Of a stretch of 64,000 nucleotides of DNA, positions 1-62,682 are shown piece after piece. Below the pieces are notes generated by a model, which saw nothing but the letters and a program-made list of their open reading frames with translations, had not been told where the DNA came from and ran no database searches. The first letter of the stretch is position 1, and each line of letters begins with the position of its first letter. A program made the translations under genes and the position numbers. Where the stretch lies: positions 1-64,000 of the forward strand of contig RSEE01000082.1 of assembly GCA_003971905.1 (NCBI GenBank), read 5' to 3'. The stretch is from Moniliella sp. 'wahieum' (taxonomy: Eukaryota).

Positions 1-22
1 CCTAACCCTAACCCTAACCCTA
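1..22. repeat. Telomeric repeat tract (CCCTAA)n, left chromosome end
   Basis: Sequence begins cctaaccctaaccctaacccta, the C-strand of TTAGGG telomeres, at the very start of the window. Confidence 0.93.
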
Positions 23-468
23 GGGGAGGGCCGAGGTAGATAGCGAGCTACCCGAAGGGGAGAGAGTTATGCCGAGGCGATAGCTCGCTAAAATCGTCCG
101 CTCTATGCAGCTATGCCCTCCGTTTTTCGATTGGACCACCCGTTCAAAAGTTACACCCCCCATCCCTAACCCTACCCACCCCGACCCAACCCACCCCACC
201 CTCCGATGGCCTCGACGATAGCTCGCTACGAAATCGTCCGCTCTATGCAGCATATGGCCTCCGTTTTTCGATTGGACCACCCGTTGAGGAGAAGTACACC
301 CCCCCATCCCTAACCCTACCCACCCCGACCCACCCACCCACCACAAATAGAATCCGTACCAACTGCAGGCTGGAAATAAATAGAATTCGACACTAGTGTC
401 AAATTGCATTTGTGGCCGTCATATCATCGATCAGCCATACCAACTGTATCACTGAACATACGTCTAGG
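23..468. repeat. Subtelomeric module A: two ~140-bp units with internal CCCTAACCCTA plus a unique tail ending ACATACGTCTAGG
   Basis: cgatagctcgcta recurs at ~78 and ~216; catccctaaccctacccacc occurs at ~161 and ~305. The whole block recurs as a direct repeat at ~10562-10991. Confidence 0.9.
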
Positions 469-2158
469 ACTTATTGTGGCTGCAATCGAGCTGGACGTGA
501 CAAAGGCGGCCTCGAAGAGCGACGTCGGGCGGCTCTTGCCAACGAACGTGTTGGGCGTTACCCACAGTTCGTTGCCGTTTGCAAAGCTTGCAAAACTAAA
601 CTAAGCATGAAGGACATGAAGCCCGTGCTTGCTCCACTCGTCTGGCATGGGTGGCTCCCCGTGCCAATCGAAGAAGGCAATCCTGTACTTAACTACCCGA
701 TCCAATCCCCCCCCGACCCCATTCCGCTGAGCTTGCAAACCCAAACAACCATGGTCCTCGTCCCTTAAACCAAGGTGGCCGCCATCGCCTAACCGCCACG
801 CGCCCGCATACCACGGTGCCCCGGCTGCCCTCGCCACTGCGTGTCGTTGTTGAGCGGCGGCCAGACGGCTTGCCTGACCGCTTCGTCCTCGTCGATACCG
901 ATGACGATGACGATGACGATGAGGTGGTGATGTTGGAAGGCTCGGGCCGCAATCCTGCCCCACCCCTTGTTCCCCGTCCGACAGAGCGGTTGCAAATTGC
1001 ATTCCATGCTCCCGTGCTGCTCCGACCCTTGTGGAGCGCGGGCCCGAAACGCGGGACGCCACTTTGCCGATCCAAGAGGCGGCGCTTGACTACGGTCTTG
1101 ATGACATGCCCCCGATTGAGGATGCACCAGCGGGAATGGAGGTGGTGCCCGAGACGGTACAAGACTATGGCCTTGACGACATGCCCCCGATTGAAGATGC
1201 ACCAGCGGGAATGGAGGTGGTGCCCGAGACGGTACAAGACTATGGCCTTGACGACATGCCACCGATCGAGGATGCACCAGCGGGATTGGATGCGGCACCC
1301 AGGGCGCGACAAGAAGCCAGGCCTGATACCGAGATGGTTCATGTGGCATCTCCCATGCCCGATGTGGTGGCGATGGAAGATATCATTGAGGCGCTTCAAG
1401 TATCTAGCATACAACGGGACGTGGTCCATGAGACACCCGACCTTGCCGATGTGGCGGAGGTAATGGAGGATGCTGTTGTGACCGCAGAGGAGGACCTGAA
1501 TCAAGAGGCTATCGAGCGTGTCCGGCCTTCGCCCGACGTTTCCATCCCCGCCCTCTAGTCCCGGTTGATGAGCTTGATACCACGCCACCCCGCGGCCCTG
1601 CTCAACACCTGCCGGAAGTGCAGCGGGAGATCACTGAGATCCAGCGGTGCGCGATCGAGCTGGTGCAATCTCGAGGGGCTCGCGGTGGTGGTTCGGTACC
1701 GGTGGGGACCGTGGTGCTGGTACCGGTGGGGACCAACCTACTACCGATCAGGGTGGATCCTCAACGGGCCAAAGCAGAACTCGTGCCCGTTCGCGTCGTC
1801 GGAAGGGCTTCCGTGGCCCCAGATACCGTTCCGCGTCAAACGGGGAGAGGCATCATATCTTCATCCAACCGCGTATGCCAACACCACTTTAGCTGCTTCT
1901 GCCGTATGGCGCTTGTATGGTGTGAGTTGGCGTACAGCCCTCGCTCTCCATGCAGAACCCCGTCCTATCTTGTACGAAGACGACATGATGAACGAAGTGG
2001 AAACGACGGGTCCCACACAGCGGCAGGTACGTGTGGACCGGGAAGAGGAAGAACCACTCATTTCCATGCGATGGAGGCTTCTGCCGACGAAGGCGGCGCC
2101 TTGTCAGCCTGACTTGCAAATATCTGATCGCGAAGCGTACAGATCTGGAATACTATGA
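469..2158 (+). pseudogene. 5'-truncated, frameshifted hypothetical gene (Cys-containing N-terminal part, acidic tract, 25-aa repeats); possibly transposon-derived
   Basis: Consecutive protein-like + strand segments (412-768, 816-~1030, 1031-1558, 1618-~1850, to 2158). Begins abruptly after the CTAGG at 468. No family recognised with confidence. Confidence 0.45.
1088..1286 (+). repeat. 75-bp coding tandem repeat (~2.6 copies; DYGLDDMPPIEDAPAGMEVVPETVQ)
   Basis: Units start at 1088, 1163 and 1238. Confidence 0.95.
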
Positions 2159-2229
2159 ATTGCCCGCGACTCACAACATTTAACACCATAGAATGCATTG
2201 CTAGTGTCTATGAGCGAACAAGCGTCGGC

Positions 2230-3810
2230 CGCACCGGTGGGCAGTGGCTGGGCAGACGGAATGACAAGCACCATGGCCTGCTTCGGCTTGGACGACCGGG
2301 GGTAGCGATGATCGAATCAATGGTGTGATGTTGATGACCGATGGCCGAAGCGAGAGTGGCAACGGCCGCGGCGTGCGTGCGAGGGAGGCGTGGGGCAGGG
2401 GGGGGGGGGGGTTAGGCAGGTGGAGATGAGAAAGCAGCCCGGCCAGGTGGGCAGTGGCTGGGCAGACGGCAGAGAAGAGAGAGGGTCAGTGGATGGCAGG
2501 GGCGTGGTGAGGCAACAGACCTTGGCATGGTGTGCTTGGACAAGGGCGAGGCGAGGGTGGGGATGGCCGAAGCGAGGGTGGGCTGGAGGCGTGCGGCAGG
2601 GGCGCGGGGGGGACGAGTGGGAGTGAGAAACAGGCCCGGTCGGGTGGGCAATGGCTGGACAGACGGCACAGAAGAGAGGGAGTCAGTGGAGGGGCGGGGC
2701 GTGGCAGACGCGGCGTGGCATGGCACTGAAGAGATGGGCCCACGGGGCATCCACCATGGTCTGCCTGCACATGCCCGCAGGGGGGGGGGGTAATGACCGA
2801 CGTGGGCGTGGCCAGGGCGGGGATGGGCGGGGGAGGGGAGCGCAGGGCGGGTGGGGCGGCGGGTGGGAATGAGAAGACACAGGCACAGGCAGGCGCATGG
2901 ACTGGGGACACAGAGCAGGGGGGTCAGTGTGTGGCCGGGGCGGATGGAAGAAGCACGGGAGACGAGAAGGCAGAGATTGGGGGGATGACGAGGCAACAGA
3001 CCTTGGCATGGTGCGTTTGGACAAGGGGGAGGCCAGAGTGGGGATGGCCGAAGCGAGGGTGGCGATGGTGACGGGGGGTGGGGGGTGGCGAGGGGGGCAG
3101 AGGGTGGACGGTAAACAGGACGGTGGGTGGGCGCGTCGGAAGGGGGAGCCGTGGGATGCTGCATGGTGCGCTTGGACAAGGGGGAGGCGAGGGTGGGGAT
3201 GGCGGGTGCGAGGGAGGGGGCGAGGGAGGGGGCGAGGCGTGCGATGGAGGGGGGGCGGGTGGGGACGCAGGTGGGAGTGGTGGGAGTGGGAAAGCAGGTG
3301 GGAGTGGGAAAGCAGGCTGCACGGGTGGGCAGTGGCTGGACAGACAGAAGGCACAGAAGAGATGGGGTCAGTGGAGGGCCGGGGCGGGGCAGACGAGGCG
3401 TGGCAAAGCACGGGAGAGGGAAAAAGAAGGCTGGGATTCAGGGGATGACGAGGCAACAGACCTTGGCATGGTGCGCTTGGACAAGGGGGAGGCGAGGGTG
3501 GCGACGGCCGACGCAAGGGTGGGGATGGGGGAGCGAGGGTGGGGATGGTGGGAGCGAGGTGGGGGCGAGGCGTGCGATGGGGGGGGCGGGGGGGGACGCA
3601 GGTGGGAGTGGGAACGAGGCGCGGACGGGTGGGCTGTGGCTGGACAGACAGACGACACAGACCAGAGAGAGTCAGTGTGGGGCAGACGGGGCGTGGCCAA
3701 AGCACGGGAGACGCGAAAAGGACGCGCTGATTCGGGGAATGACGAGGCAACAGACCTTGGGGCGCCAGGCCACGGCTCGGCCCAGGCGGCGGGTGGTGGG
3801 CCAAAGCCAG
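2230..3810. repeat. G-rich degenerate subtelomeric repeat block
   Basis: gaggcaacagaccttgg recurs at ~2510, ~2990, ~3450 and ~3744; gtgggcagtggctgg.cagac recurs at ~2237, 2447, 2645, 3325 and 3628. The + strand is strongly G-rich. Confidence 0.85.
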
Positions 3811-4227
3811 CTGGGGCGATCGCCACCCAAGCCAACTCAGCGCACTGGTCAGCTCACCCATCCACCCACCCATCATCCGTCCGCTGCGTCCGTGCACACC
3901 CAATTACTATTCCCGTTTAACGCCGGCCGCGCGCCGCTCATCGATCATCGATCACGCGATCACGCCTCCTCCACCGCCGATCCGTCCGCCGCCCATCCCA
4001 TCCCAAATCCACCAGCCCCACCATCGCACCCACCCAACGCCACCCCGCCCTGCGCCGCCTGTGCGCCGCGCCCCGCACCCCGCACGGGTGCATCTCCCCA
4101 ACCACCCACACCCACACCTGCGCGCCACCCATGCCCCACTCCAAGCCCAACTGCAGGAGCACCGCCAGCATCAGCTCGGCCACGCTGCCGCACCGGCCTG
4201 CCATCGCCCCGCCTGCACGTACAGGTA

Positions 4228-6400
4228 CGTGTGCAGACCCCCATTCTGGGCCAATTTGCAACCGCAGCAGCTCCCCTGAACGATCTCACTCGGGAGAATA
4301 ATTTGCAACTGACTCGATTCAAATCTGCTCAGATTTCGCTCAGCACCAGCGGCAGTAAGCGCGACACTGCGCCGTTTCAACCTCCCTTGGCCTACTTGGA
4401 CGCGTGCAGACCTCAACTCTGGTGCACTCCGCAAGCGCCTCAGCTTTCCTGAAAGAGCTCAATCAGGAGTACATGCTACACGTGTTTATTCTACCATGGG
4501 ACCAGTTGGGAGGTGTGCGGGCGGCGGGTACATTCCTCAGTTTGAAGCTGCTCCGCCCTGGTGCGTGCGGTTTTGTACCCATCAAGGCCTCGGTCCTGCA
4601 CTCAGCCCGAAGCGGTTTGGCTCTCCTGGAAGAGCTCGGCCACGCGCACAAATGAAGTGCATCCAAGCTGGGATCCGACCAAAATTGGAGAAGTACGGCG
4701 GGAATGATCATTGGACGGCGACCATTTTGGCCAACTGTGCACCATCACGTAGCGATTTGGGCGTGTGTAGACCTCATCTCTGCATGGACCGGGACAACGT
4801 TAGCTCCCATGAAAGATCTCATCCAGGAGCACAGTGTGTGTATCTACAATCTCGGATCCAACGAAAATTGACAGAGCACGAACGGATGGAAAATGGAACT
4901 TCGTCGATATGGGGCGAATATGTCCCATGCCAAGACTACATGTGGGTGTGCAGACCTCAATTCTGCACGAATCTGGAAGCGGCTTGGCTTCCCAGCAAGA
5001 TCTTAGCCCCGTGCACCACCTGGGCGCACCAACTGGGGATCCGGCCCAAAAACAAATCTGAGCGCATGCAACATCGAGCGGACGCGGACCATATATAGTA
5101 CTAACGCATGCCCCGCCAACTTCATTGGGTGTGCAGACCTCAGTTCTGCACCAATCCCGGTGCGGTTTGGCTTGCCTGAAAGATCTCGGCAGCGGGATTG
5201 ATATGAGGGCAGTTGCTCTGGGATGCGGCCAGAAATAAATGCGGCGGTATGCAACGAGGAGCGGATGCACACCATATATTCAACGCTTGTATATCTGACC
5301 ATCCCCAAACTGGATTTGGGTGTACAGACCTCAGTTCTGCACCAATCCGGTGCGGTTTGGCTTGCCTGAAAGATCTCGGCAGCGGGATTGATATGAGGGC
5401 AGTTGCTCTGGGATGCGGCCAGAAATAAATGCGGCGGTATGCAACGAGGAGCGGATGCACACCATATATTCAACGCTTGTATATCTGACCATCCCCAAAC
5501 TGGATTTGGGTGTACAGACCTCAGTTCTGCACCAATCCCGGTGCGGTTTGGCTCCCCGAGTAGATCTCAGCAGCGAGTTGTTATGAGGGCAGTTGCTCTG
5601 GGATGCGGCCAGAAATAAATGCGGAGGTATGCAACGAGCAGCGGGTGCGCACCATATATTCAAAGCTTGTATATATCTGCCCATCCCCAAACTCATTTGG
5701 GTGTACAGACCTCAGTTCTGCACCAATCCCGGTGCGGTTTGGCTCCCGAGTAGATCTCAGCAGCGAGATTGTTATGAGGGCAGTTGCTCTTGGATGCGGC
5801 CAGAAATAAATGCGGCGGTATGCAACGAGGACCGGAAGCACACCATATATTCAACACTTGTATATATCTGACCATCCCCAAACTTCATTTGGGTGTACAG
5901 AGCTCAGTTCTGAACCAATCCCGGTGCGGTTTGGCTTGCCTGAAAGATCTCGGCCGGATGCACGTTCTGAGAGCAGCCGCGCTGTATGCGGCCAAAAATA
6001 AATGCGGCGGTATGCAACGAGGAGCGGATGCACACCGTATATTACAACTGCTATATAAGATGCACCATCATACAGCGTCATTTGGGTGTACAGAGCTCAG
6101 TTCTGAACCAATTCCGGTGCGGTTTGGCTTGCCTGAAAGATCTCGGCCGCGTGCACGATCTGAGTGCAGTTGCGCTCGCATCCGACGAAAAGTAGACGAT
6201 ACGGTATGCAACGAGCACAAGAAGTAGACCTGCATTCAACTCGGCGACCATCAGCTGCACCACCGCAAACATGCATTTGTGCGTCAAAGGCTCAATTCTG
6301 CACCGATTCGAGTGGGGTTTGTTTGCCCTGAAAGATGTGTGCGAGGAGGTCAATCTGAGTGTTTCCAACGTCGGATCTGGGCCAAAGGAGCGCGGCCAGG
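4228..6400. repeat. ~175-190-bp tandem satellite (~12 units), homogeneous core with diverged flanks
   Basis: gtg(t/c)a(c)agacctcagttctgcacc..gaaagatctc anchors at ~4230, 4404, 4580, 4765, 4947, 5130, 5320, 5510, 5700, 5893, 6085 and 6280. Units between 5130 and 5890 are nearly identical. Confidence 0.9.
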
Positions 6401-6702
6401 ATGGAATGAGCATGGGAGCACGCCCCCAGATGGAGCTGATGTGCGCTGTACGTTGCAACCGCTGGGTGCTTGGCCCGCCGGGGTTGCACCTCGCAGCAGG
6501 GCACAGCTCACAGTCAGTACAGTCAGTGGCGTCCGCCCAGGCCAGCGTCCCTGGCAGCGTCGATCGGCGATCAGCGATCCTCGATCCACGGCCACTGCCG
6601 GCGCAGCACCGCCCTTGTCTGAGCATGCATCACGCAGCACGCCTGCCGGCCCGTGCCGCCCAGCCGCGCAACTGTCACATACCACATGCCACATGCCACA
6701 CA

Positions 6703-6738
6703 GCATGCATGCATGCATGCATGCATGCATGCATGCAT
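6703..6738. repeat. (GCAT)n self-complementary microsatellite in a CATG-rich region
   Basis: gcatgcatgcatgcatgcatgcatgcatgcatgcat. Confidence 0.95.
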
Positions 6739-7988
6739 GGCACATGTCCATGTCATGCATCATGTCAAATCGCGCATGCTGCATGCCCCATGCGCTGCAT
6801 CACCGCACCGCGGCACCTGTCACCTGTCACGCGTCACGCGCCACCAGCGCACCAGCCACCGCAGTACCACGCATGTCCAAGCCAGTCTCCAGTCACTCGT
6901 CACGCGTCACTTGTCAGTACCATGTCAGTACTCATTACATCATTGTATGTCATTCTATTGATGATTCGATGATCGACGTCCTCGGTCATCGGCGTGGCTC
7001 GGTGACTCGTCGGCGATGATCGATACGCCGCGGTCCAGTGCTCCGACCGCCGGGCCTCGGCCTCAGCGGGGGTGCAGCCACTGCACCTGTGTGGTAGTTC
7101 ACCTCAGCGCTGGTGGCTGGTGCCGCACCGGCTGTGCCTCAGTGCTGGTGCGGTCCTGCCTGCACTTGCATGTGCATGATGCATGACATGCATGATAGCG
7201 CCTCAAGCTTCGACGTCTTCAACGCCAGGTCACCGGTCAGGCCTCAGGCCGCAGGCGCCTCAGGGCAGCACCAATGCGAATCACAGGTCGCATTGGCACA
7301 CCAAGTGCACGGGCCATGCGGCTTGCACGGTGCCTGACATGGACTGGGGCCACAACGCCTGCCGCATCGCAGAGCACCGCCGCTACGCCCGCTGCCCCTT
7401 GTTTGCTGCCGTTCACAACGGCAACGCCGCCACGCTGCACACCCGCCAGATGCCAGTGTAGGAGAGCTCGGCCAGCGCTCAACGCTCAGCGGACGTGCCT
7501 GCAGGCCCAACTGCCCCGCGCACCACCTCGCACGCCCCCGCGCCCCCCGCCTCCTTCTCGTGGCCTGCTGGACTGATGCACTGATGGGACTGATGATGGG
7601 TCAACACCTGGTCAACCTGCGTCCGGGATGGGTGTCCGCCTGGCCATCTGCATGCGCCAGCACCATCCCCAGGCCTCTCGGACTCTCCACCCACCACGCG
7701 CTTGCACTGCAACTCATGATCCCACAACAGTAACGGCCAAGCTGATAGCGATGGTACACTATGGGTGCCGGGGTGTTGCATGAGCACGGGTGCGCCAGAG
7801 TCGTAGCAGATGTATGGCAGGTCGTCGGTACTCCCCCAGGAAGCGCCTCGGAGGTGGCTATCGAGGGGCTGCGCAGCAGCGGCCCGAGCCACCGCTTGTT
7901 CCATGGTTAGAATAGCTCAAGCGCACGTCGTAACTTCTAACTTGTCAACCAGCGAGAGGACCACCGGGCCGACGGCCTGGGTAGAACA

Positions 7989-8119
7989 CGTTGAACGTTG
8001 AACGTTGAACGTTGAACGTTGACCGTTGAGCTTGAGCTTGAGCCTCAGGGGCCGCAAGCTTGACCTCAAGGCTGAGCGGTTGAACGTTGAATATTGAATG
8101 TTGAACGTTGAACGTTGAA
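7989..8119. repeat. 7-bp-period palindromic repeat tract (GTTGAAC)n and variants
   Basis: gttgaacgttgaacgttgaac..., gttgaatattgaatgttgaacgttgaacgttgaa. Confidence 0.9.
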
Positions 8120-8159
8120 GACGTAATCCCAATGCGGGGTCACCTTAACCGGCATATAT

Positions 8160-8486
8160 GTCATGCCCCCCGGGGGTTGACCCTGTTCAAAAACAGTGTA
8201 GTTTGCGAATTCGCGCCGGCTTGCGCTGCAACCTAGATCAGTCGAAAGCTACGAAGCACGCGCGTTTCATAATGGGTAGAGGTCGTCCACGTTATCGAAA
8301 AAAAAATGGAGAGCGGGGGTCGAAGGCGGAACATGTGCATGCCCCCCCGGGGGTTGACCCTGTTCAAAACAGTGTATGTTTGCGAATTCGCGCCGGCTTG
8401 AGCTGCAACCTAGATCAGTCGAAAGCTACCAAGCACGCGGTTTCATAATGGGTAGAGGTCGTCCACGTTATCGATAAAAAAAAATA
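8160..8486. repeat. ~177-bp tandem duplication
   Basis: catgccccccgggggttgaccctgttcaaaa...gtccacgttatcga.aaaaaaaa at ~8162 and ~8338. Confidence 0.92.
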
Positions 8487-9034
8487 CCAAGTGGGCGGAG
8501 AGTACCTCGGGTGACCCCCTCCTATGACACATTTTTGGGTGTGGTGCGCCAACCAGTGGTGGTGGTGGTGAGCCAATGGTACCGTTAGACTCGTACAGTG
8601 CCGCCGCACGCGCCCCGGCCATCAGAAACATCAAAAATAACAGTTTCAAAAACCCGCCCCTAAATCTGGACCGGTCGGACACCCTGTAAGGCTCGATGGA
8701 GGCTTGCCCTGGTGAGGTAGAGGCTTTAATGGCAGGCGGAGGAGGTGTGGTGTTGGTGTATGCCGCTGGTACCAAAATGACCATATCTCAGCCGTCTGTT
8801 GACCGTTCCAGCTCAAACTTGGCATGGAGTTAGCGGTAAGCAAGCACTGGTGAGGGGGTGCATCAGATCCATCACCATCCCCACCATAAGAGCGGGCGCG
8901 CATGCAGGTGTGCTAGCACCAAAACAAGCATTAATATGGACGATGCGCGTCATTTCAGGAGGGTGTGTATGTTGGATGAAGTGTTGGTGGTGGTGGAAGT
9001 CTTGCGGTGGTGGGAGAGGCTGGGAGTGGTGGAG

Positions 9035-9113
9035 GTGGCGGTGGTGGGCGGTGGCGGGGCGTGGCGGTGGCGGTGGCGGTGGTGGTGGTGGTGGTGGTGG
9101 TGGCGGTGGCGGC
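9035..9113. repeat. (GGT/GGC)n trinucleotide microsatellite
   Basis: ggtggcggtggcggtggtggtggtggtgg... Confidence 0.9.
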
Positions 9114-9366
9114 GCTGGATTATTTGTTTGCGCGCGCCAACATCTGGTGGCCGCTGCCAGCGGCGCCTACAGCGTTGGTCAGCGGTAGGCGCTCACGGGT
9201 CACCCAGCCAGGCACCCCGTGAAAGGTCGGACGGCCAGCCAGAGGAACGATTTCTACCCAAACGCCTCCACGTAGACGGCATGGGGGCTACCCAGGTACT
9301 TTTTGTTCCTCTGGCACCCAATTCAGGAGCGGAATCTTCCCATCCATTCCTCAAAATATGTCTAGG

Positions 9367-10215
9367 TGTTGAAGACAGGGAGCAGAGGCGTGGAGATGGC
9401 GAGCACAGGCTTGGGGATGGCGAGCACAGGCTTGGTAACGAGGAGCAGGCTTGGGGATGACGAGTGCAGGCTTGGAGACGGTGGGCAGAAGGCAAGACAG
9501 AGTCGACACAAGCGTTGGAGCATGGCCGTAACGAGGGCCGAGGTGGGCGACACAACCGTGGCAATGCGTGGCCAAGAGCGACGTGGTGAGAGGGGCAAGA
9601 GTCTGGAGAAAGAGCGGGTCAGAATGAGGCAAGGTGGAATGAAATGGCATGGAGCGGCATGGGGAGCTGCACGGTCTGCTTGGACACGGGCGAGGCAAAG
9701 GGAGAGGGCCGAGACGAGGATCAAGATGGGCAAGCCGAACACCCAGAAGGCCAACTCAAGCGGCGGTGGTGCTGACGGCAGGCGAGCCAGTGACGACGGA
9801 CGGCCAGGGCGCCATGGTGAGGCCAGCAGGCATGCACAACGCCATGCACCATCGCTTGCACCATTCCCTGCTTTCGCTTGACCGACCCGACGGTGGCGAT
9901 GGCCGAATGAATGGCGGAGGAGATGGCGAGCGACTGGGGATGTGCGAGGGAAAGGGGGGGATTGCTGGGGCGTGCGTGGGAGGCAGGCACGCGGGTTAAA
10001 GAGAGCAAAGAAGGTGAGAAAGCGGGACGGGATGGCGGGCAGGGGCTGGACAGAAGGCACAGCAAAGTGGGTCAGTGCGGGCGTGGGGAGGGGCAGCCAA
10101 GGCGCGGGCAAGGCGCTGAGAGCGGCGGAAGGAGGCACAGATGGGAGGGGAAGCGAGGCAACACACCTTGGGGCGCGGGGAACGCTGCGAGGGAGGGGAG
10201 GATGGAGGCAAGAAG
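9367..10215. repeat. G-rich dispersed repeat, including a ~21-bp tandem at ~9391-9480; homologous to 15873-16480 and related to 2230-3810
   Basis: catgcaccatc.c.tgcaccattccctgctt.cgcttgaccgacc.gacggtggcgatgg.cgaatgaatggcgg is shared by ~9843-9917 and ~16118-16192; gaggcaaca.accttgg occurs at ~10155. Confidence 0.85.
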
Positions 10216-10283
10216 GCAGCGTACCAGCCCCATCGCCCCCCCATCAACATCTACGCCCCAACATGCACGCCCGCGCGCCCATC

Positions 10284-10420
10284 CATTAGGTAAGGACAGC
10301 GCGGCGCCGCGGGTGGATACAGGCTTGCAATGTTCATTAGGTACCGGCCACGCGCGCAGCCGGTGGATACAGGGGTGCAATGTTCATTAGCTCAGCGCCA
10401 TGCTGGCCGGCGGGGATACA
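10284..10420. repeat. ~51-bp tandem repeat (~2.7 copies)
   Basis: cattag..(variable)..ggtggatacagg..tgcaatgtt repeated. Confidence 0.8.
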
Positions 10421-10560
10421 CACGTCGACGGGTGATGACTACGTCAGAGGTCATAGGCCTCAGGACTATTGAGGTATCTCATACGGGCTAGCCCGTATGC
10501 GATGACCTCCGCCTCGATTGCTATGCGCCTCGGGACTATTGAATCTTTGAACATACGTCT

Positions 10561-11654
10561 AGGCCGAGGGTAGATAGCTCGCTACCCGAAGGGGAGGGAG
10601 TTATGCCGAGGCGATAGCTCGCTACGAAATCGTCCGCTCGTTGCAGCATATGGCCTCCGTTTTCAATCCGACGCACCGTTGAGAAGTTACACCCACCCAT
10701 CCCTAACCCTACCCACCCCGACCCAACACCCACCCTCCGATGGCCTCGACGATAGCTCGCTATAAAATCGTCCGCTCTATGCAGCATATGGCCTCCGTTT
10801 TTCGATCCGACGCACCGTTCAAAAGTTACCCACCCATCCCTAACCCTACCCAACCCAACCACCCCACAAATAGGATCCGTACCAACTGTAGGCTGGAAAC
10901 AAATAGAAATCGACACTAGTGTCAAATTGCATTTGTGGCCGTCAAATAATCGATCAGCCATACCAACTGTATCACTGAACATACGTCTAGGCCCGGCCCA
11001 GAGCTTGTACAATTTTCACCAACCGGGCTCGCTGGTTTTCACCTAGTGGTTTTTCAAACAAGGTGGGGGCCGATTTCAAATTGAAAATCACCAATTGATG
11101 CTGACAACATATGTCTAGGGAGTTATGCCGAGGCGATAGCTCGCTATAAAATCGTCCGCTCTATGCAGCATATGGCCTCCGTTTTCGATTGGGCCAACCG
11201 TTCAAAAGTTACACCCCCCATCCCTAACCCTACCCACCCCGACCCACAACACCCACCCTCCGATGGCCTCGACGATAGCTCGCTACGAAATCGTCCGCTC
11301 GTTGCAGCATATGGCCTCCGTTTCTCGATTGGACCACCCGTTCAAAAGTTACACCACCCATCCCTAACCCTACCCACCCCGACCCACCCCACCCACCCTC
11401 CGATGGCCTCGACGATAGCTCGCTACGAAATCGTCCGCTCGTTGCAGCATATGGCCTCCGTTTTTCCATTGGACCACCCGTTGACAAGTTACACCCCCCA
11501 TCCCTAACCCTACCCACCCCGACCCACCCCACCCAGAGCTTGTACGATTTTCACCAACCGGGCTCGCTTTTTTTCACCTAGTGGTTTTTGGGACAAGGTG
11601 GGTGCCGATTTCAAATTGAAAATCACCAATTGATGCTGACAACATATGTCTAGG
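10561..11654. repeat. Compound array A-B-A'-B of subtelomeric modules (five ~140-bp telomere-seed units, two ~120-bp B modules)
   Basis: Module A at 10562-10991 matches 23-468. B (ccagagcttgtac..gatgctgacaacatatgtctagg) lies at ~10998-11119 and ~11533-11654. Three more 140-bp units lie at ~11120-11533. Confidence 0.92.
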
Positions 11655-12006
11655 CCAGCCCCGGCGTTCAACATTCAACGCTCACCGGTAACGCACGTGG
11701 ATGCGGTCGCCTGTCGGGCGTACCATCGTCACCAAACCGCGGCGTCCACAGCGCGTCGCATGTCACACACCCATTGTAACCCACCCTCACACGTACATGC
11801 AATGCCCCATCCCGGTCATGCCACCGCGGTTGCACGCTGGCTCCACCCCGCACGGAACATTCCCCGCCCCGGACCTGTCACATCCGTTGCCGCATGGGGC
11901 GTTAGCGTGTGTCACATGTCACATGGCACATGCGGTGTTAGCGGGCGGCACATGCGGGCTCATTAGTAAGTAGCCCCCATGCCGATCATTTCGAGCTGGC
12001 ACCGCC

Positions 12007-12192
12007 AGGACACTGGCCCCGCACCCAAACTGTCAGAGGTCACCAACCGTCAGGCACCTCCTTCGCCTCCGCACGTTTCAGACGGGCCAGCGTAAACTCT
12101 GCATTCCAGGACACAGGCCCCGCGCCCAAACTGTCAGAGGTCACCATCTGTCAGGCGCCACATTTTCGCACTTACACACTGTGGTGCCTGAC
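12007..12192. repeat. ~100-bp tandem duplication with downstream hairpin
   Basis: caggacac.ggccccgc.cccaaactgtcagaggtcacca at 12007 and 12107; gtcaggcgccaca / tgtggtgcctgac inverted pair at ~12149-12192. Confidence 0.85.
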
Positions 12193-12287
12193 ATTTTGCA
12201 ACCTCTGTAATTCTGAGACGAAAAACGTCATTTTCATAGAGAAAATCGACGGAGTTATGCAGTCCTTCACGTGAATATCTGACTAGG

Positions 12288-15045
12288 GCCCGGCTGCAGT
12301 AGCGCAACACATTGCCCAGCCGGTCCGCCACACGCATTGTGCCCACCACCAGGTGCTCCTTCTCGTACTCACGCACAAAACGCACCCGCCTCGTCTGCCT
12401 TCGCTGTCCAGTCGAGCGTCCCATCCGAGCGCACCGCCTCTGCATCGTTCAGCAGCCGCCGGTGCAGCGACGCGACCATCGACAGACGCAGGTTCCACAT
12501 CAGCCCCGCCATCGCCGGCGACACTTGGTTCGGCGCACGAAACAGCAGGTGGCCCACCGTGCCTGTCCCACCTCCCGGGCGTCGGACGCTGCTCTGGGCC
12601 CTCTCCCACCTCCTCCTCCTCCTCCTCTCCTTCCCCCTCCCCCTCCAAGCGATCGTCATCATTCGGCTGCTGGAGAATGTTGCCCACGACGGCGTGCCTA
12701 GTAACAGTGGGCGGACGCGCCTGCTGCGGCTCATCTGCCTCGGGCGGGTACCAGATGCCGAGACACTGGCTAAAGGCAAACAGCCACAGGGGCCTACATC
12801 CTCCAGGGTCGCTGCCCAAGGCCGTGTCGTGGTCATCTCGAGCCAGATCGCAAGGCGCTGCCAAAGCGGGTCGTAGTCAAGCTGCTGCGTCCCGGATTGT
12901 CAACCGGGGGCTCCCAGGGGTTCGGCGCAAGGACATCGGCGACAAAGCTTTCCAGGGCACTCTCGCCCACTGGCATGCCGTCATCCTCCAGCGCCTGGAT
13001 GAAGGCCTGCTCGTGCATCGACAAGACGCGACTGGCCAGGTCGGCCAGCGGGTGCTCCTCTGTGCTGCCCAGCGTCGCCCGCGCTCCGAGGAGCAACTGC
13101 ATAAAGACAAAGCAGTCGCCTAACAAGCCGGGTGTACTTGCGGATCGTGTCGGTACGGACCTGCAAGCCAAAGCGATGGAAGCACGAAAACTCGGACTCT
13201 TGCCCGGCTGGAGCAATGGCATGCTGGACGGGGTGGGAAAAGGCGAGAAGCGCCCGGGCCCAATGGTACAGGTTGTTATTGGCACGCTTGCGTTCGTGGT
13301 TCATGTTTGGCAGATACCGCATCTCGGCCAAGCGCATCAGCGGTACCCCGGCCATCAACTCGGACACATGCCACATGCGAGGGAAGGAGCCCATGAAATG
13401 CTCGCCATCCGCAATGGTCAGCGGATCCTCTCCCGGCATGTGAGGCATCAAGCTGGGCGAGCCCTCCTCCCGGTAAGGTCGGTATACGTCAGCAGAGGCC
13501 GCCGTGGCGGAGAGGCGTCGCGCAGGGGACGGGGATAAGGACGATCGGGCGCCGCGGCTGGTGGAGAGGCGTTGCGCTGCCGCCGCGGGGGGCAGGCGAG
13601 GGCGAGGGAGACTGCGTCGGCCGGCCTGCCTCGGTCGACTCTGCCTCGCTAGGGGATGCTTCCTGGGTGCGTGCTGGTCGCCGGGTGCGCGCTGGTACCC
13701 AGTCCCATTCCGATTCGGAGTCGCTGGCCTCATCCACGTCTCTCCGCTCGGTGTCGCTGGTATCCTCGTCACTCTCTCGGGATCTGTTGCTCGTTGTATC
13801 GTCATCCGTTCCTCGGTTGCGCACCGGGCTGGTTGGAGGGGGCGACTGGACAGCTGCGGCTGCATCAAGGCGCCTCGCAGCATCGATCGCGGCTGGTGGC
13901 GCATCGGGCCCAACAATGGCAACGGTAAGGTCGTACAAGACTCGTTGGGTGGGAAGCCAGAGCGGACGAGGGTGGTGGCCGGTAGTGCTGGCATGCTTGG
14001 CGTGCGGGGTGGTGGGTGCGTGCTACCTTCAAACATGTGCGGCACACCTCCTTGGGAGGGGAAATGACGATGCGGTCGACTGGCTCGGACAGGTACGTGC
14101 TAAAGTCCTTGGGCTCAGCAGAGCGGGGTACATGTGGGGAGGGAACATGCGAAAGGCGTTGCGGGCAGCCTTGGCGTTTGCGCGGTTGATCAAGGGATGT
14201 GTGCCGCTGACCCGGAAAGCTTTGACTCTGTTGCTTGAGATATGCGATTCGGGGACAAAGTATTTGCATACGTTGCAATACAAAAGGCGCAAGCTGGGGT
14301 GGTACTCGAGACCCAGTGGTTCAATCGCGAGACGGATGAGATGGAACGGATCATTGAAGATGGAGGCAGCGACCTGTCCTTTGAGTTGACTGCATTTAGA
14401 GGCGTGCTGACGCGCGTTCTGTGCGATTTGCGAAACAGGCGGAGCAGGCGGAGCATTGGTAGCCTGCGACAGGCTTGGTCAGGTTGGGAGCCGGTGGAAG
14501 AGAAAAGGGGGGGGAGAGGACGTACGTGGGCGTTTGGTGGATGGTCACCTTGTGCTTGGGCAACCCTCTTTGGACAAGAATGTGGGTGGTGATGGTGTCG
14601 GGGCGTGCGTGGGAGAAGGCAAGGGCGGTAGGGGAGATGAAAGCGGCGAGGTAGGTGCAGCAACAGGAGCTGGGGATGCTGGCTGCTCATCCAGAGGATC
14701 TTGTGTGCCCTCGAGGCGCGGGTCTTGCGTGGTTGCTGCAAGTGCTAGGATCTGGAGAGGCGTCGGGTTGGGAGGCGGAGTGGGGCTCGTGTCTGTGCCC
14801 GGACGAGGAGAGGCAGGGATGGTTGACAGCTGGGAGCAAGCCGCGTTGTTGGTGAGAGCTGGGCGGTCCATGCGGCGAGGCAACGGCGTGTCGGATGCTG
14901 CTCGCGCTGGAGGTGGTGCACCAGACGGGCCGGTCGAAGGTGTGAAGGGGCGATGTTGGCTGCCAGGCCTGGCCGTGCTGGGATGAGACGAAGCAGGTGT
15001 TCCGCAGTCAAACGTGGCAGCTGGCGTCGTAGGCAAGGCAGGCAT
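12288..15045 (-). pseudogene. Truncated N-terminal portion of a fungal telomere-linked helicase (TLH)-type gene with an OrsD/DUF3505-like Zn region; RecQ domain absent
   Basis: Pieced across frames: LGLEYHPSLRLLYCNVCKYFVPESHI (~14330-14240), EVCRTCLKV, LQVRTDTIRKYTRLVRRLLCLY, LFRAPNQVSPAMAGLMWNLRL, RFVREYEKEHLVVG..LRYC. This motif order resembles subtelomeric TLH-family N-termini. Transcribed toward the telomere; cut off at ~12287. Confidence 0.65.
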
Positions 15046-15753
15046 GGTAACGCGAGGATGGTGGGACGTGAGGAGGAAGGGGCGCGTTGGGAGGCGTGGA
15101 AAGAGGAGGAAATGAAAGAATGCAGGCAGCGCGACGCGTGTGGAGTACAATTTATTACGCTGCCGCCGTGCGGGTGCATGCATCGACGGCTGATGCGCGT
15201 ACGAGAGGCGACACGACTTGGCGGCGTGTTGAGCGATGCGCGCTGCACCAAAATGGACACATCTCGGCCGTTTCTCACCGATTGGGCTGCAATTTGGTAT
15301 GCTGCTAGCCATCGCATGGGGCCAGCTATGGCAGGCGATGAAGTCAATACACGACGCTTGCAGCTGAGACCCAAGGCGCCGTGCACGCGGTGGTGCTACA
15401 GCCCAATGGCATCCTATTATGGCATCTACTCTACATGCAACGACCATACCTGGTTGGAAATGGGGGGGGTCGCAAAACAAGTGTGGAGTTCGTAGAGTGG
15501 AGATGGAGTGGTGGTGGCGGGAGTAAAGGTGGTAGTGGAGGTGGGGAGTGGGGGTGGAAGTGGGGGTGGGAGGGCTGGCGTGTGCGTTGGAGGCGGCGGC
15601 GGCGCGCGTGGGGTGTGCAGTGACAGTGGCGGTGGGCGGTGGCAGTGCTGGGGTAAGTGATGCGAGCAGCAGCACCTTTGATGGTCAAGCGTTGGTCAGC
15701 ACGGTCAGCGGTCAGCCGGTCACCGGCCAGGGCCTGTCGGCCCCGCCGGCCGG

Positions 15754-15872
15754 CCAGAGCTTGTACAATTTTCACCAACGGGCTCGCGGTTTTCACCTAG
15801 TGGTTTTCAAACAAGGTGGGGGCCGATTTCAATTGAAAAATCACCAATTGATGCTGACAACATATGTCTAGG
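15754..15872. repeat. Third copy of ~120-bp module B
   Basis: ccagagcttgtacaattttcaccaac..aaaatcaccaattgatgctgacaacatatgtctagg. Confidence 0.92.
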
Positions 15873-16480
15873 GTGACAGCAGGTTCGCCAAGCGAGTGCA
15901 CATGGGCCGGCAGAGCGTCCAGACGGGACGGCATGGCACGCTGCACGGTATGCGTTGGCATGGCCGAGCCTGAAACGAAGATGGCCAAGACGAGGATCCG
16001 GATGGCCAAGCCAAGCGTCCAGACAACCAACTCAAGCGCTGCAGTGGTGGGGGCAGGCGAGGCTGTGACCATGGACGGCCAGGACGCCAGACCGAGGCCA
16101 GCGGGCACGCACAACACCATGCACCATCCCCTGCACCATTCCCTGCTTCCGCTTGACCGACCTGACGGTGGCGATGGTCGAATGAATGGCGGTGGTGGCC
16201 GAGTCAACGGTGGGGATGGCCGAGTCAGAGGCGGGGATGGCCTGGGCGTGCGTGGGAGGTGGGAGCGCGGCGCTGGGGAGGGTGGGGAGGCAGGTGGAGG
16301 GAAAGAGCCCCGGGGTGGTGGGCAGTGCTGCAGAGACAGAGCCTGGACAGAAGACATAGAAGCGAGAGGGTCAGTGGAGGGCCGGGGGTGTGGCAGATGA
16401 GGCGCGGGAAACGGAGGTGAAAAGGGGAGCTAAACGAGGCAACAGGCCTTGGGGCCCGGACAAAGCCAGGCGGATTGGGG
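15873..16480. repeat. G-rich dispersed repeat, most centromere-proximal subtelomeric copy
   Basis: Homologous to ~9640-10175; gaggcaacaggccttgggg at ~16436. Confidence 0.8.
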
Positions 16481-62577: not shown

Positions 62578-62682
62578 AGGAGTAGGTCGGACTTGAACCA
62601 ACGACTTCAAGATGATGCACCTGCCCACACAGGCGTGGGGCACAATTGCAATCTCACACGCTAACCGCTGCGTCACTACTCC
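62578..62682 (-). tRNA. tRNA-Cys(GCA) with a 32-nt intron (62614-62645)
   Basis: Acceptor stem GGAGTAG/CTACTCC with U73 discriminator; D-arm ACGC AGCGGTTA GCGT; anticodon GCA at 62649-62647; T-loop GGTTCAAGTCC; downstream oligo-T Pol III terminator. Confidence 0.95.

Follow-up and report, generated by a model that had tools for sequence, protein, structure and literature searches.

Helicase-bearing subtelomeric elements, such as the Y' elements of yeast and the telomere-linked helicase (TLH) elements of fungi, have long been suspected to be mobile elements or to derive from them. In the literature on these elements, no mobilisation signal defined by a terminus was found described. The subject of this study is one chromosome end of the fungus Moniliella sp. 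'wahieum' (GenBank assembly GCA_003971905.1, contig RSEE01000082.1, positions 1 to 64,000, hereafter the window), where eight blocks of subtelomeric DNA, one of them holding a helicase-type pseudogene, end in versions of a single short motif, ATAYGTCTAGG, all in the same orientation. All motif and joint results given below come from this one end and this one 64-kb window. A first-pass annotation of the same DNA, made from its letters, had drawn attention to the motif and had offered several transposition models for it.

The closest precedent is the subtelomeric TLH region I of Magnaporthe (Pyricularia) oryzae, an analogue of yeast Y'; the first-pass annotation did not name it. There, the helicase gene faces the adjoining telomere and has tandem repeats upstream, the TLH ends are alike up to a discrete 'near' boundary (CCTAACC...) with unrelated sequences beyond it, and these ends are frequently truncated, in one case within the open reading frame (ORF) of TLH (PMC1635262). 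The Moniliella end resembles this arrangement in several respects. Next to the telomere there is a helicase-type gene that faces it, here as a pseudogene with the helicase domain cut off; tandem repeats upstream and truncation inside the gene are common to both; there is a discrete centromere-proximal boundary, beyond which the sequence is unrelated in four of four within-family pairs; and the boundary starts CCTA... on the helicase-sense strand (CCTAGACRTATGTT here), with one or two C residues ambiguous. The two boundary sequences agree at 7 of 14 positions. The boundary here is a non-telomeric motif of 13-16 nt and not a tandem HAR-C unit with an inverted telomere repeat. It also differs in being common to four otherwise unrelated module types and in being stacked eight times at one end.

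Telomeric retroelements offer a second comparison. The HeT-A, TART and TAHRE elements of Drosophila form head-to-tail stacks of one polarity at telomeres, with a fixed proximal end and a variably truncated distal end, and the members that are non-coding or without reverse transcriptase (RT) need enzymes in trans. The Moniliella array is also head-to-tail and of one polarity, with a fixed proximal and a variable distal end. It differs in having no oligo(A) at the eight joints and no gag or RT among 144 ORFs, in the telomerase-type repeat that caps the end, and in its heterogeneous blocks, which are not copies of a few elements. The Athena/Coprina elements (endonuclease-deficient Penelope-like) and the MoTeR/FoTeR elements (telomeric non-LTR elements of fungi) are similar in lying at chromosome ends only, in one orientation and often 5'-truncated, with a proposed priming by the exposed chromosome 3' end. 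According to two reports, Coprina Penelope-like elements and FoTeRs have telomere repeats between element and chromosome and encode an RT, and Penelope-like elements carry hammerhead motifs (PMC13159263; PMC12857005). Endonuclease-deficient Penelope-like elements differ from this locus, where the joints hold no telomere repeat and neither an RT nor a hammerhead (Rfam, E up to 10) is found; MoTeR/FoTeR elements differ as well, since the 3' end here is not followed by telomere repeats and no RT or REL-endonuclease ORF occurs in 1-17.5 kb. The HeT-A/TART and Penelope-like families, which the first-pass annotation had put forward for their geometry, therefore fail on the defining features tested, namely poly(A), junctional telomere repeat, ribozyme and RT.

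The Terminus and Its Distribution

Telomeric C-strand repeats, (CCCTAA)n ending in ...CCCTA, occupy positions 1-22 of the + strand, and coordinate 1 is therefore the chromosome end; the + strand is the telomeric C-strand and reads from the tip inward. This is the sole tract of at least two consecutive CCCTAA units in the window. The telomere junction reads ...CCCTA followed by GGGG, so CTAGG is present there too (20-24, with the next GG).

An exact search for ATAYGTCTAGG gave seven matches in 64 kb, ending at 468, 9366, 10563, 10991, 11119, 11654 and 15872. All seven are on the + strand, with none on the - strand, and lie no more than 15.9 kb from the telomere; the mean in 100 dinucleotide shuffles was 0.00, which bears out the seven same-strand ends first reported. 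With up to two mismatches there were 20 matches against 11.9 ± 3.4 expected, and the sole additional subtelomeric one was ATCTGACTAGG at 12277-12287 (site E). A 16-nt weight matrix was built from the five family types and scanned over both strands of the 64 kb, about 128,000 positions. The eight sites score 22.3-26.3 bits and the next best position in the window 14.4, in agreement with the earlier remark that the motif is missing from the gene-rich part, where only the core GTCTAGG without its upstream part recurs (33913 and 50333, both +). Once site E is excluded from the matrix, its score is 14.7 bits, at rank 8 of 127,970; the maxima of 20 shuffled windows have a mean of 14.7 and a largest value of 18.8. 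The claim of site E depends on its position, because its score is no better than the best of a shuffled window. It ends at the exact nucleotide where the helicase-type homology stops (tblastn end 12287), and the weaker variant that had been proposed there thus has its support from position and is not significant by sequence alone.

The sequence switches abruptly after CTAGG, as had been claimed. Ungapped identity in all four within-family pairs is 30/30 in the last 30 nt before the joint and 5-10/30 in the next 30 nt. Each motif is a joint between unrelated sequences, as the first-pass annotation had supposed, with a fixed centromere-proximal and a variable distal end, and a constant donor end meets arbitrary acceptor ends. 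From 469 there is an open frame without a confirmed homologue, from 9367 and 15873 a G-rich repeat family, from 10564 and 11120 two stretches of module A, each beginning at its own point within the module, from 10992 module B, from 11655 unique DNA, and from 12288 the cut helicase-type pseudogene. The '5'-less ORF' of the first-pass annotation does exist as an open frame from 469 onward, which is not confirmed as a gene.

The base following CTAG is G at 8/8 sites, the conserved end running one G beyond CTAG in all eight termini, and the last 30 nt of modules A, B and D have 21-23 positions in common. Modules A, B, D and E are not significantly alike over the 117 nt that precede the motif. Among 15 pairs of tails compared, B1-B3 alone is clearly related (z = 67), while B1-E (2.5) and B3-C (2.2) are marginal; that the tails of A and B are homologous along their whole length, as was suspected by eye, is not supported (z = 1.1).

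Neither the exact search nor the matrix scan found a reverse-strand copy of the terminus in the 64 kb. Paired terminal inverted repeats in both orientations, which would have marked the modules as ordinary nested transposons, are accordingly absent within the window (0 reverse-strand termini). A poly(A) or simple-repeat tail occurs at none of the eight joints, where ...CTAGG is followed directly by unrelated DNA. The joints are equally free of telomere repeats, CCCTAACCCTA being confined to the tip and to the interior of the A repeats.

Some further readings of the motif were set aside. A ninth, degenerate copy at about 2203-2213, before the G-rich array, has no score in the matrix scan and was rejected. 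An intron 3' end, read from a CTGAC branch site and YAG, was dropped as well, because modules A, C and D do not fit it and only B does. An origin from a sequencing adapter or vector was considered and set aside.

The Helicase-Type Pseudogene and Its Boundary

In an exhaustive profile search, the ORF at 12984-14099 (-) gave one match, P0001 (E 1.2e-7), whose residues 1113-1276 form a DEAD/ResIII helicase domain; a word-indexed search of the same ORF against longer proteins returned nothing. With tblastn, residues 33-690 of P0001 are colinear with 14412 to 12287, in frames -2, -3, -2, -3 and -1. On this homology, the block from 12288 to 15872 (S8 in Table 1) holds the N-terminal half of a TLH-type gene, which is frameshifted, faces the telomere and has a possible start near 15044. 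The cut end of a helicase-type gene had been noticed before, and the alignment with P0001 indeed stops at 12287; this copy is without the helicase domain because the gene is cut at 12287/12288. An intron-like segment of about 61 nt (GTACGT ... CTGAC ... CAG) is located at ~14470-14530 (-), upstream of the aligned part of the pseudogene; it is a candidate only, its N-terminal exon having no homologue.

The DNA at 15226-15780, upstream of the B3 site and between B3 and the helicase-type gene, is homologous to 8750-9264, with a local score of 178 against 35.1 ± 3.7 in 30 shuffles. This paralogy of modules C and B3 extends over ~520 nt at ~65% identity, and ATATGTCTAGG is intact in both. Both are therefore old paralogues of one unit, composed of the terminus, about 600 nt and the helicase gene, and the terminus is better conserved than its surroundings, given that ATATGTCTAGG has been kept at such overall divergence. 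The assertion that the modules share only their terminus has to be given up, both for C and B3 and for the 21-23 common positions of A, B and D. By homology, the motif is the proximal boundary of a helicase-bearing (TLH) subtelomeric cassette.

Possible Traces of Addition at the Chromosome End

When the two internal copies of module A are aligned with the tip, the start of block S4, GGCCGAGGG, falls no more than 8 nt from the base where the telomere attaches in S1. The start of S6 is ~37 nt further in. Since the outer edge of S4 coincides with the telomere junction, S4 bears the signature of a former chromosome end. The starts of S4 and S6 are as predicted by sequential addition onto eroded ends that had lost their telomere, and support it; they are hard to obtain via nested insertion. 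The flanks of S4, S5 (module B1) and S6 are contiguous in no paralogue, and these blocks are therefore not simple insertions.

At joints 10564, 10992 and 11120 the acceptor could be inferred from paralogues, and a pre-existing GG or AGG was present in 3/3, matching the final 2-3 nt of the motif. Both target-site duplications and microhomology had been thought worth looking for in the flanks; the former were not seen, and the latter takes the form of this GG/AGG overlap at the three inferable joints.

Searches for Enzymes, Ribozymes and RNA Folds

The region carries no gene in cis for an enzyme that might have made the joints. None of the 144 stop-to-stop ORFs of at least 70 aa in 1-17.5 kb reached the Pfam cut-off (best E 0.013), and no RT, gag, Rep, transposase, Helitron_like_N or PIF1 domain was found among them, which upholds what the first-pass annotation had said of RT, Rep/helicase and transposase domains. 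Over the same 17.5 kb, Rfam with E up to 10 detected no ribozyme (hammerhead or HDV-like) or other RNA family at the motifs, and an end defined by a ribozyme was rejected on this basis. Rfam gave 16 matches in all: 15 at the (CATG)n tract of 6683-6763, all of them miRNA families and all spurious and sub-threshold, and one lncRNA fragment at 12614-12687. A shared terminal RNA fold was likewise rejected, as six tails were folded and gave z values of 0.28 to -3.76 with no common fold. The tails of C, D and B3 have hairpins 50-115 nt from the end, those of A and E have none, and in none of the six folds does a hairpin adjoin the terminus.

One ORF deserves separate mention. For 469-765 (+), which opens right after joint 468, 27 of 30 ESM Atlas matches are DUF6570 clusters with a score of 0.96; the recognition value of 1519, below 2300, makes this weak evidence. 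PF20209 is absent from this ORF by Pfam hmmscan at E up to 10, and no Rep or helicase domain follows it in 1-17.5 kb (Pfam). DUF6570 is reported to be specific to the transposases of HLE2 (Helitron2/Helentron) elements (PMC11417382). The resemblance is a weak lead toward rolling-circle transposition.

A Proposed Stack of End Additions and Its Alternatives

On one reading, to which we give about an even chance, end-cassettes with a fixed terminus were added to this chromosome end at least eight times in succession, and the region would be the fossil record of that stacking. The cassettes would be of two kinds, a helicase-bearing element like TLH or Y' and short non-coding derivatives of it, among which A would consist of a tail, 140-nt repeats and telomere, and B of a tail of ~125 nt. 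Their centromere-proximal terminus would be sharp, reading ...TGAACATAYGTCTAGG in the sense of the telomeric C-strand, and the strand of the helicase gene would begin with CCTAGACRTATGTTCA. After breakage or erosion of the end, another cassette would be joined by precisely this terminus to whatever was then terminal, whether the inside of a gene, of a G-rich array or of an older cassette. The joint would contain no telomere repeats and an overlap of about 2-3 nt (GG or AGG), and the new distal part would later be truncated, after which the cycle would repeat.

As to how the terminus arises, the preferred mechanism, in which it is set by copying from RNA with an RT supplied in trans, is put forward tentatively and held to be somewhat doubtful. 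In one version, a C-strand-sense RNA ending in ...CUAGG would be a direct template for the chromosome 3' end, its terminal GG pairing with a terminal CC. In another, a helicase-sense, TERRA-like RNA would start with CCUAG, and its run-off cDNA, ending at the motif, would anneal to the broken end. The Y' RNA of yeast is reported to be mobilised by the RT of Ty1 in telomerase-negative cells (PMC7175516, citing Maxwell 2004). The parallel is the copying in trans, through RNA, of a subtelomeric element with a helicase gene when telomeres fail. The Moniliella end differs in giving no sign of RNA copying, in keeping the intron-like segment in the pseudogene, and in having no LTR-element sequence at the joints.

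A number of points weigh against successive addition or against its RNA-based form. One chromosome end was examined, and the motif is known as a cassette boundary from that end alone. The eight joints do not represent as many independent families, since there are two joints of A and three of B, and C and B3 are related; for the four independent families that remain, a single shared orientation would arise by chance with a probability of 0.125. Site E is not significant by its sequence alone. The GG/AGG overlap at the joints is suggestive, with n = 3 and G-rich contexts. No mark of an RNA intermediate is seen in the form of poly(A), a ribozyme, an RT in the 144 ORFs or a shared terminal fold, and S2, with 8.9 kb of tandem arrays, would be an odd cargo for a retro-copy. 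The joints, finally, are known from assembled sequence alone.

Rolling-circle or one-ended DNA transposition, Helitron-like and most likely of the Helitron2/Helentron kind, would make the motif a 3' terminus nicked or terminated by an HUH nuclease in trans, and the blocks 5'-truncated head-to-tail copies. It would account for a fixed 3' end with CTAG, a variable other end, and a terminus of only ~16-30 nt common to the families. The locus agrees with HLE1 Helitrons in its CTAG (8/8), which conforms to their 3' CTRR terminus, and with Helitron-like elements in general (HLE1 and HLE2) in combining a conserved terminus with a variable interior and truncated tandem copies; such copies of Helitrons, and family-specific termini in fungi, are on record (PMC5148889). 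The length of the terminus fits the 11-18-nt terminal signals given for HLE2 in PMC11417382, and the possibly DUF6570-like ORF 469-765 lies just past joint 468. That ORF, however, has the low Atlas recognition noted above (1519 < 2300), Pfam did not find PF20209, and Helitron_like_N and PIF1 are missing from 1-17.5 kb. The proposed Helitron-like origin thus retains the CTAG end and loses the rest: CTAG is followed by G and not T in 8/8, no hairpin is found 10-12 nt upstream of the 3' end, there is no RepHel domain, and the A/T insertion context of HLE1 is wanting. The flanks are variable, neither A-T nor, as in HLE2, T-T, and no 11-18-nt inverted terminal partner exists in the 64 kb, although 5' ends may be outside or lost. 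Ordinary insertion also does not explain why S4 starts at a former telomere junction, and we regard this origin as rather improbable.

No special enzyme would be needed if the blocks had been acquired by break-induced or microhomology-mediated replication from other ends, the motif being a conserved boundary or protein-binding element where the copied homology ends. Capture of subterminal sequence onto de-protected ends is documented for Pyricularia, as is repair mediated by microhomology (PMC8381367), short overlaps are present at the joints, and the TLH gene is terminally truncated here as it is at Magnaporthe telomere 1 (PMC1635262). In Pyricularia, however, such repair leaves remnants of telomere repeat behind or starts from arbitrary points of the donor (PMC8381367). 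The joints of Moniliella have no vestigial repeats, unlike those cases, and where arbitrary donor starts are expected, one and the same nucleotide is the start in 8/8 donors, across four families that are otherwise unrelated. This makes such repair an improbable source of the pattern.

Nested insertion of short-terminus transposons, either with SINE/LINE tails or as miniature inverted-repeat elements (MITEs), followed by a single deletion at the end in which every 5' half was lost, is unlikely by a good margin. Families that share only a short terminus do recall SINE/LINE partners or MITE families, and module B is compact (~125 nt) and present three times. Terminal-inverted-repeat transposons and MITEs differ from the locus, which has no inverted partner (0 in the window) and no target-site duplication, and a poly(A) or simple-repeat tail is lacking too. 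No paralogue has the flanks of B1, S4 or S6 side by side, and an identical orientation throughout would have to be combined with the coincidence of the S4 border with the telomere junction. Misassembly, in the form of chimeric joining of subtelomeric repeats, is very unlikely indeed. Assemblies are at their weakest in terminal, repeat-rich DNA such as this, which is known from assembled sequence alone; yet the motif is not low-complexity, and an assembler would have no reason to break eight times at one motif of 13-16 nt. The copies are not collapsed duplicates, because they differ by 5-12%.

A wider and frankly speculative proposal can be made. A telomerase-bearing fungus might run a second, cassette-based form of end-healing, in which mostly non-coding modules with a shared terminus of ~16 nt are appended, terminus first, to any de-protected end by an enzyme in trans (an RT or an HUH-type nuclease). 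In that case the TLH element would itself be an end-cassette that moves, and the same origin might hold for the discrete boundaries of TLH regions in other fungi. Eight joints with one terminus at a single end would supply the mobilisation signal of which no description was found for Y' and TLH elements, and the rebuilding of subtelomeres after telomere failure would become a testable question. If the motif is a common transposon end, the finding is an ordinary one.

Block Map and Minor Features

Nine segments, S1 to S9, were delimited by self-comparison of the window and direct reading (Table 1).

Table 1. Segments of the Moniliella chromosome end, from the tip to the chromosome arm.
Segment	Position	Strand	Content or basis
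Telomere	1-22	+	(CCCTAA)n, direct reading
S1, module A, terminal copy	23-468	+	ends TGAACATACGTCTAGG
S2	469-9366	+	ends TCAAAATATGTCTAGG (module C)
S3	9367-10563	+	G-rich family copy (9367-10171) and module D (10172-10563); ends TGAACATACGTCTAGG
S4, internal module A copy	10564-10991	+	alignment with tip, blastn
S5, module B1, 128 nt	10992-11119	+	B3-type element cut ~8 nt upstream of AGAGC
S6	11120-11654	+	A repeats from A position ~61 (11120-11526) joined to B2 (11527-11654)
S7, unique DNA	11655-12287	+	ends in diverged motif TGAATATCTGACTAGG (module E)
S8	12288-15872	-	cut helicase-type pseudogene, its upstream region and B3 (15745-15872)
S9, start	15873-16455	+	G-rich family copy running into gene-bearing chromosome arm

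S1 is made up of a short unique start, 140-nt repeats with telomere-like C-rich tracts, and a 128-nt tail, and is 88% identical to 10562-10991 and 92% to 11117-11397 (blastn). In the 140-nt repeats of module A (78-340, 10612-10867 and 11134-11535), a degenerate telomere-like C-rich tract of ~45 nt (CCCTAACCCTACCCACCCCGACCC...) alternates with ~95 nt of unique sequence, as if short stretches had been added time and again, with imperfect telomere synthesis after each addition. The three copies of module B (~125 nt; 10992-11119, 11527-11654 and 15745-15872) have 89-95% identity, B1 being 94-95% identical to B2 and B3.

In S2, the open frame at 469-2155 is frameshifted and holds 75-nt repeats; a G-rich array covers ~2214-3760 and a tandem array of 190-bp units ~4200-6336, besides DNA that is unique or of low complexity. 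The final ~620 nt of S2 are a paralogue of what lies upstream of the helicase-type gene. There are three of the 75-nt repeats, tandem and in frame (GLDDMPPIEDAPAGMEVVPETVQDY), at 1076-1314 (+). No homologue was found for the frameshifted frame, of which 1432-2109 (+) was searched. The ~190-bp array has at least seven copies, the adjacent ones at 5157-5346 and 5347-5536 being 100% identical. A palindromic, (CATG)n-rich microsatellite is found at 6683-6763 and a (GTTGAAC)n minisatellite at 7976-8132, which is followed at 8158-8482 by two direct copies of ~150 nt, 95% identical and each with a terminal A-run.

The G-rich family (~2214-3760, 9367-10171 and 15873-16455) has units of ~300-460 nt, and every copy or array ends GGCAACAGACCTTGGGGC; 9655-9994 and 15929-16270 are 79% identical. 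This family may be a fragile or preferred acceptor, because joints 9366 and 15872 fall inside it at different registers. S9 is the oldest acceptor. S7 holds an internal direct repeat of ~115 nt; for S7, the body of module D and 469-2213, no paralogue above background was found within the window. Away from the terminus, module D has a perfect 20-nt palindrome, CATACGGGCTAGCCCGTATG, at 10480-10499, and the start of module C (9239-9314) a hairpin with a 12-bp stem (RNA fold z = -3.76).

The G+C content along the window is ~0.52-0.67, and its other large ORFs encode ordinary eukaryotic domains. A peroxidase ORF has fungal best matches, with 52-78% identity among the matches listed, and for an NmrA-like ORF the ESM Atlas search gave bacterial clusters. 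A tRNA at 62578-62682 (-) was recognised by Rfam (47.4 bits) and not by ARAGORN; since the Rfam match spans 105 nt, this tRNA gene probably contains an intron.

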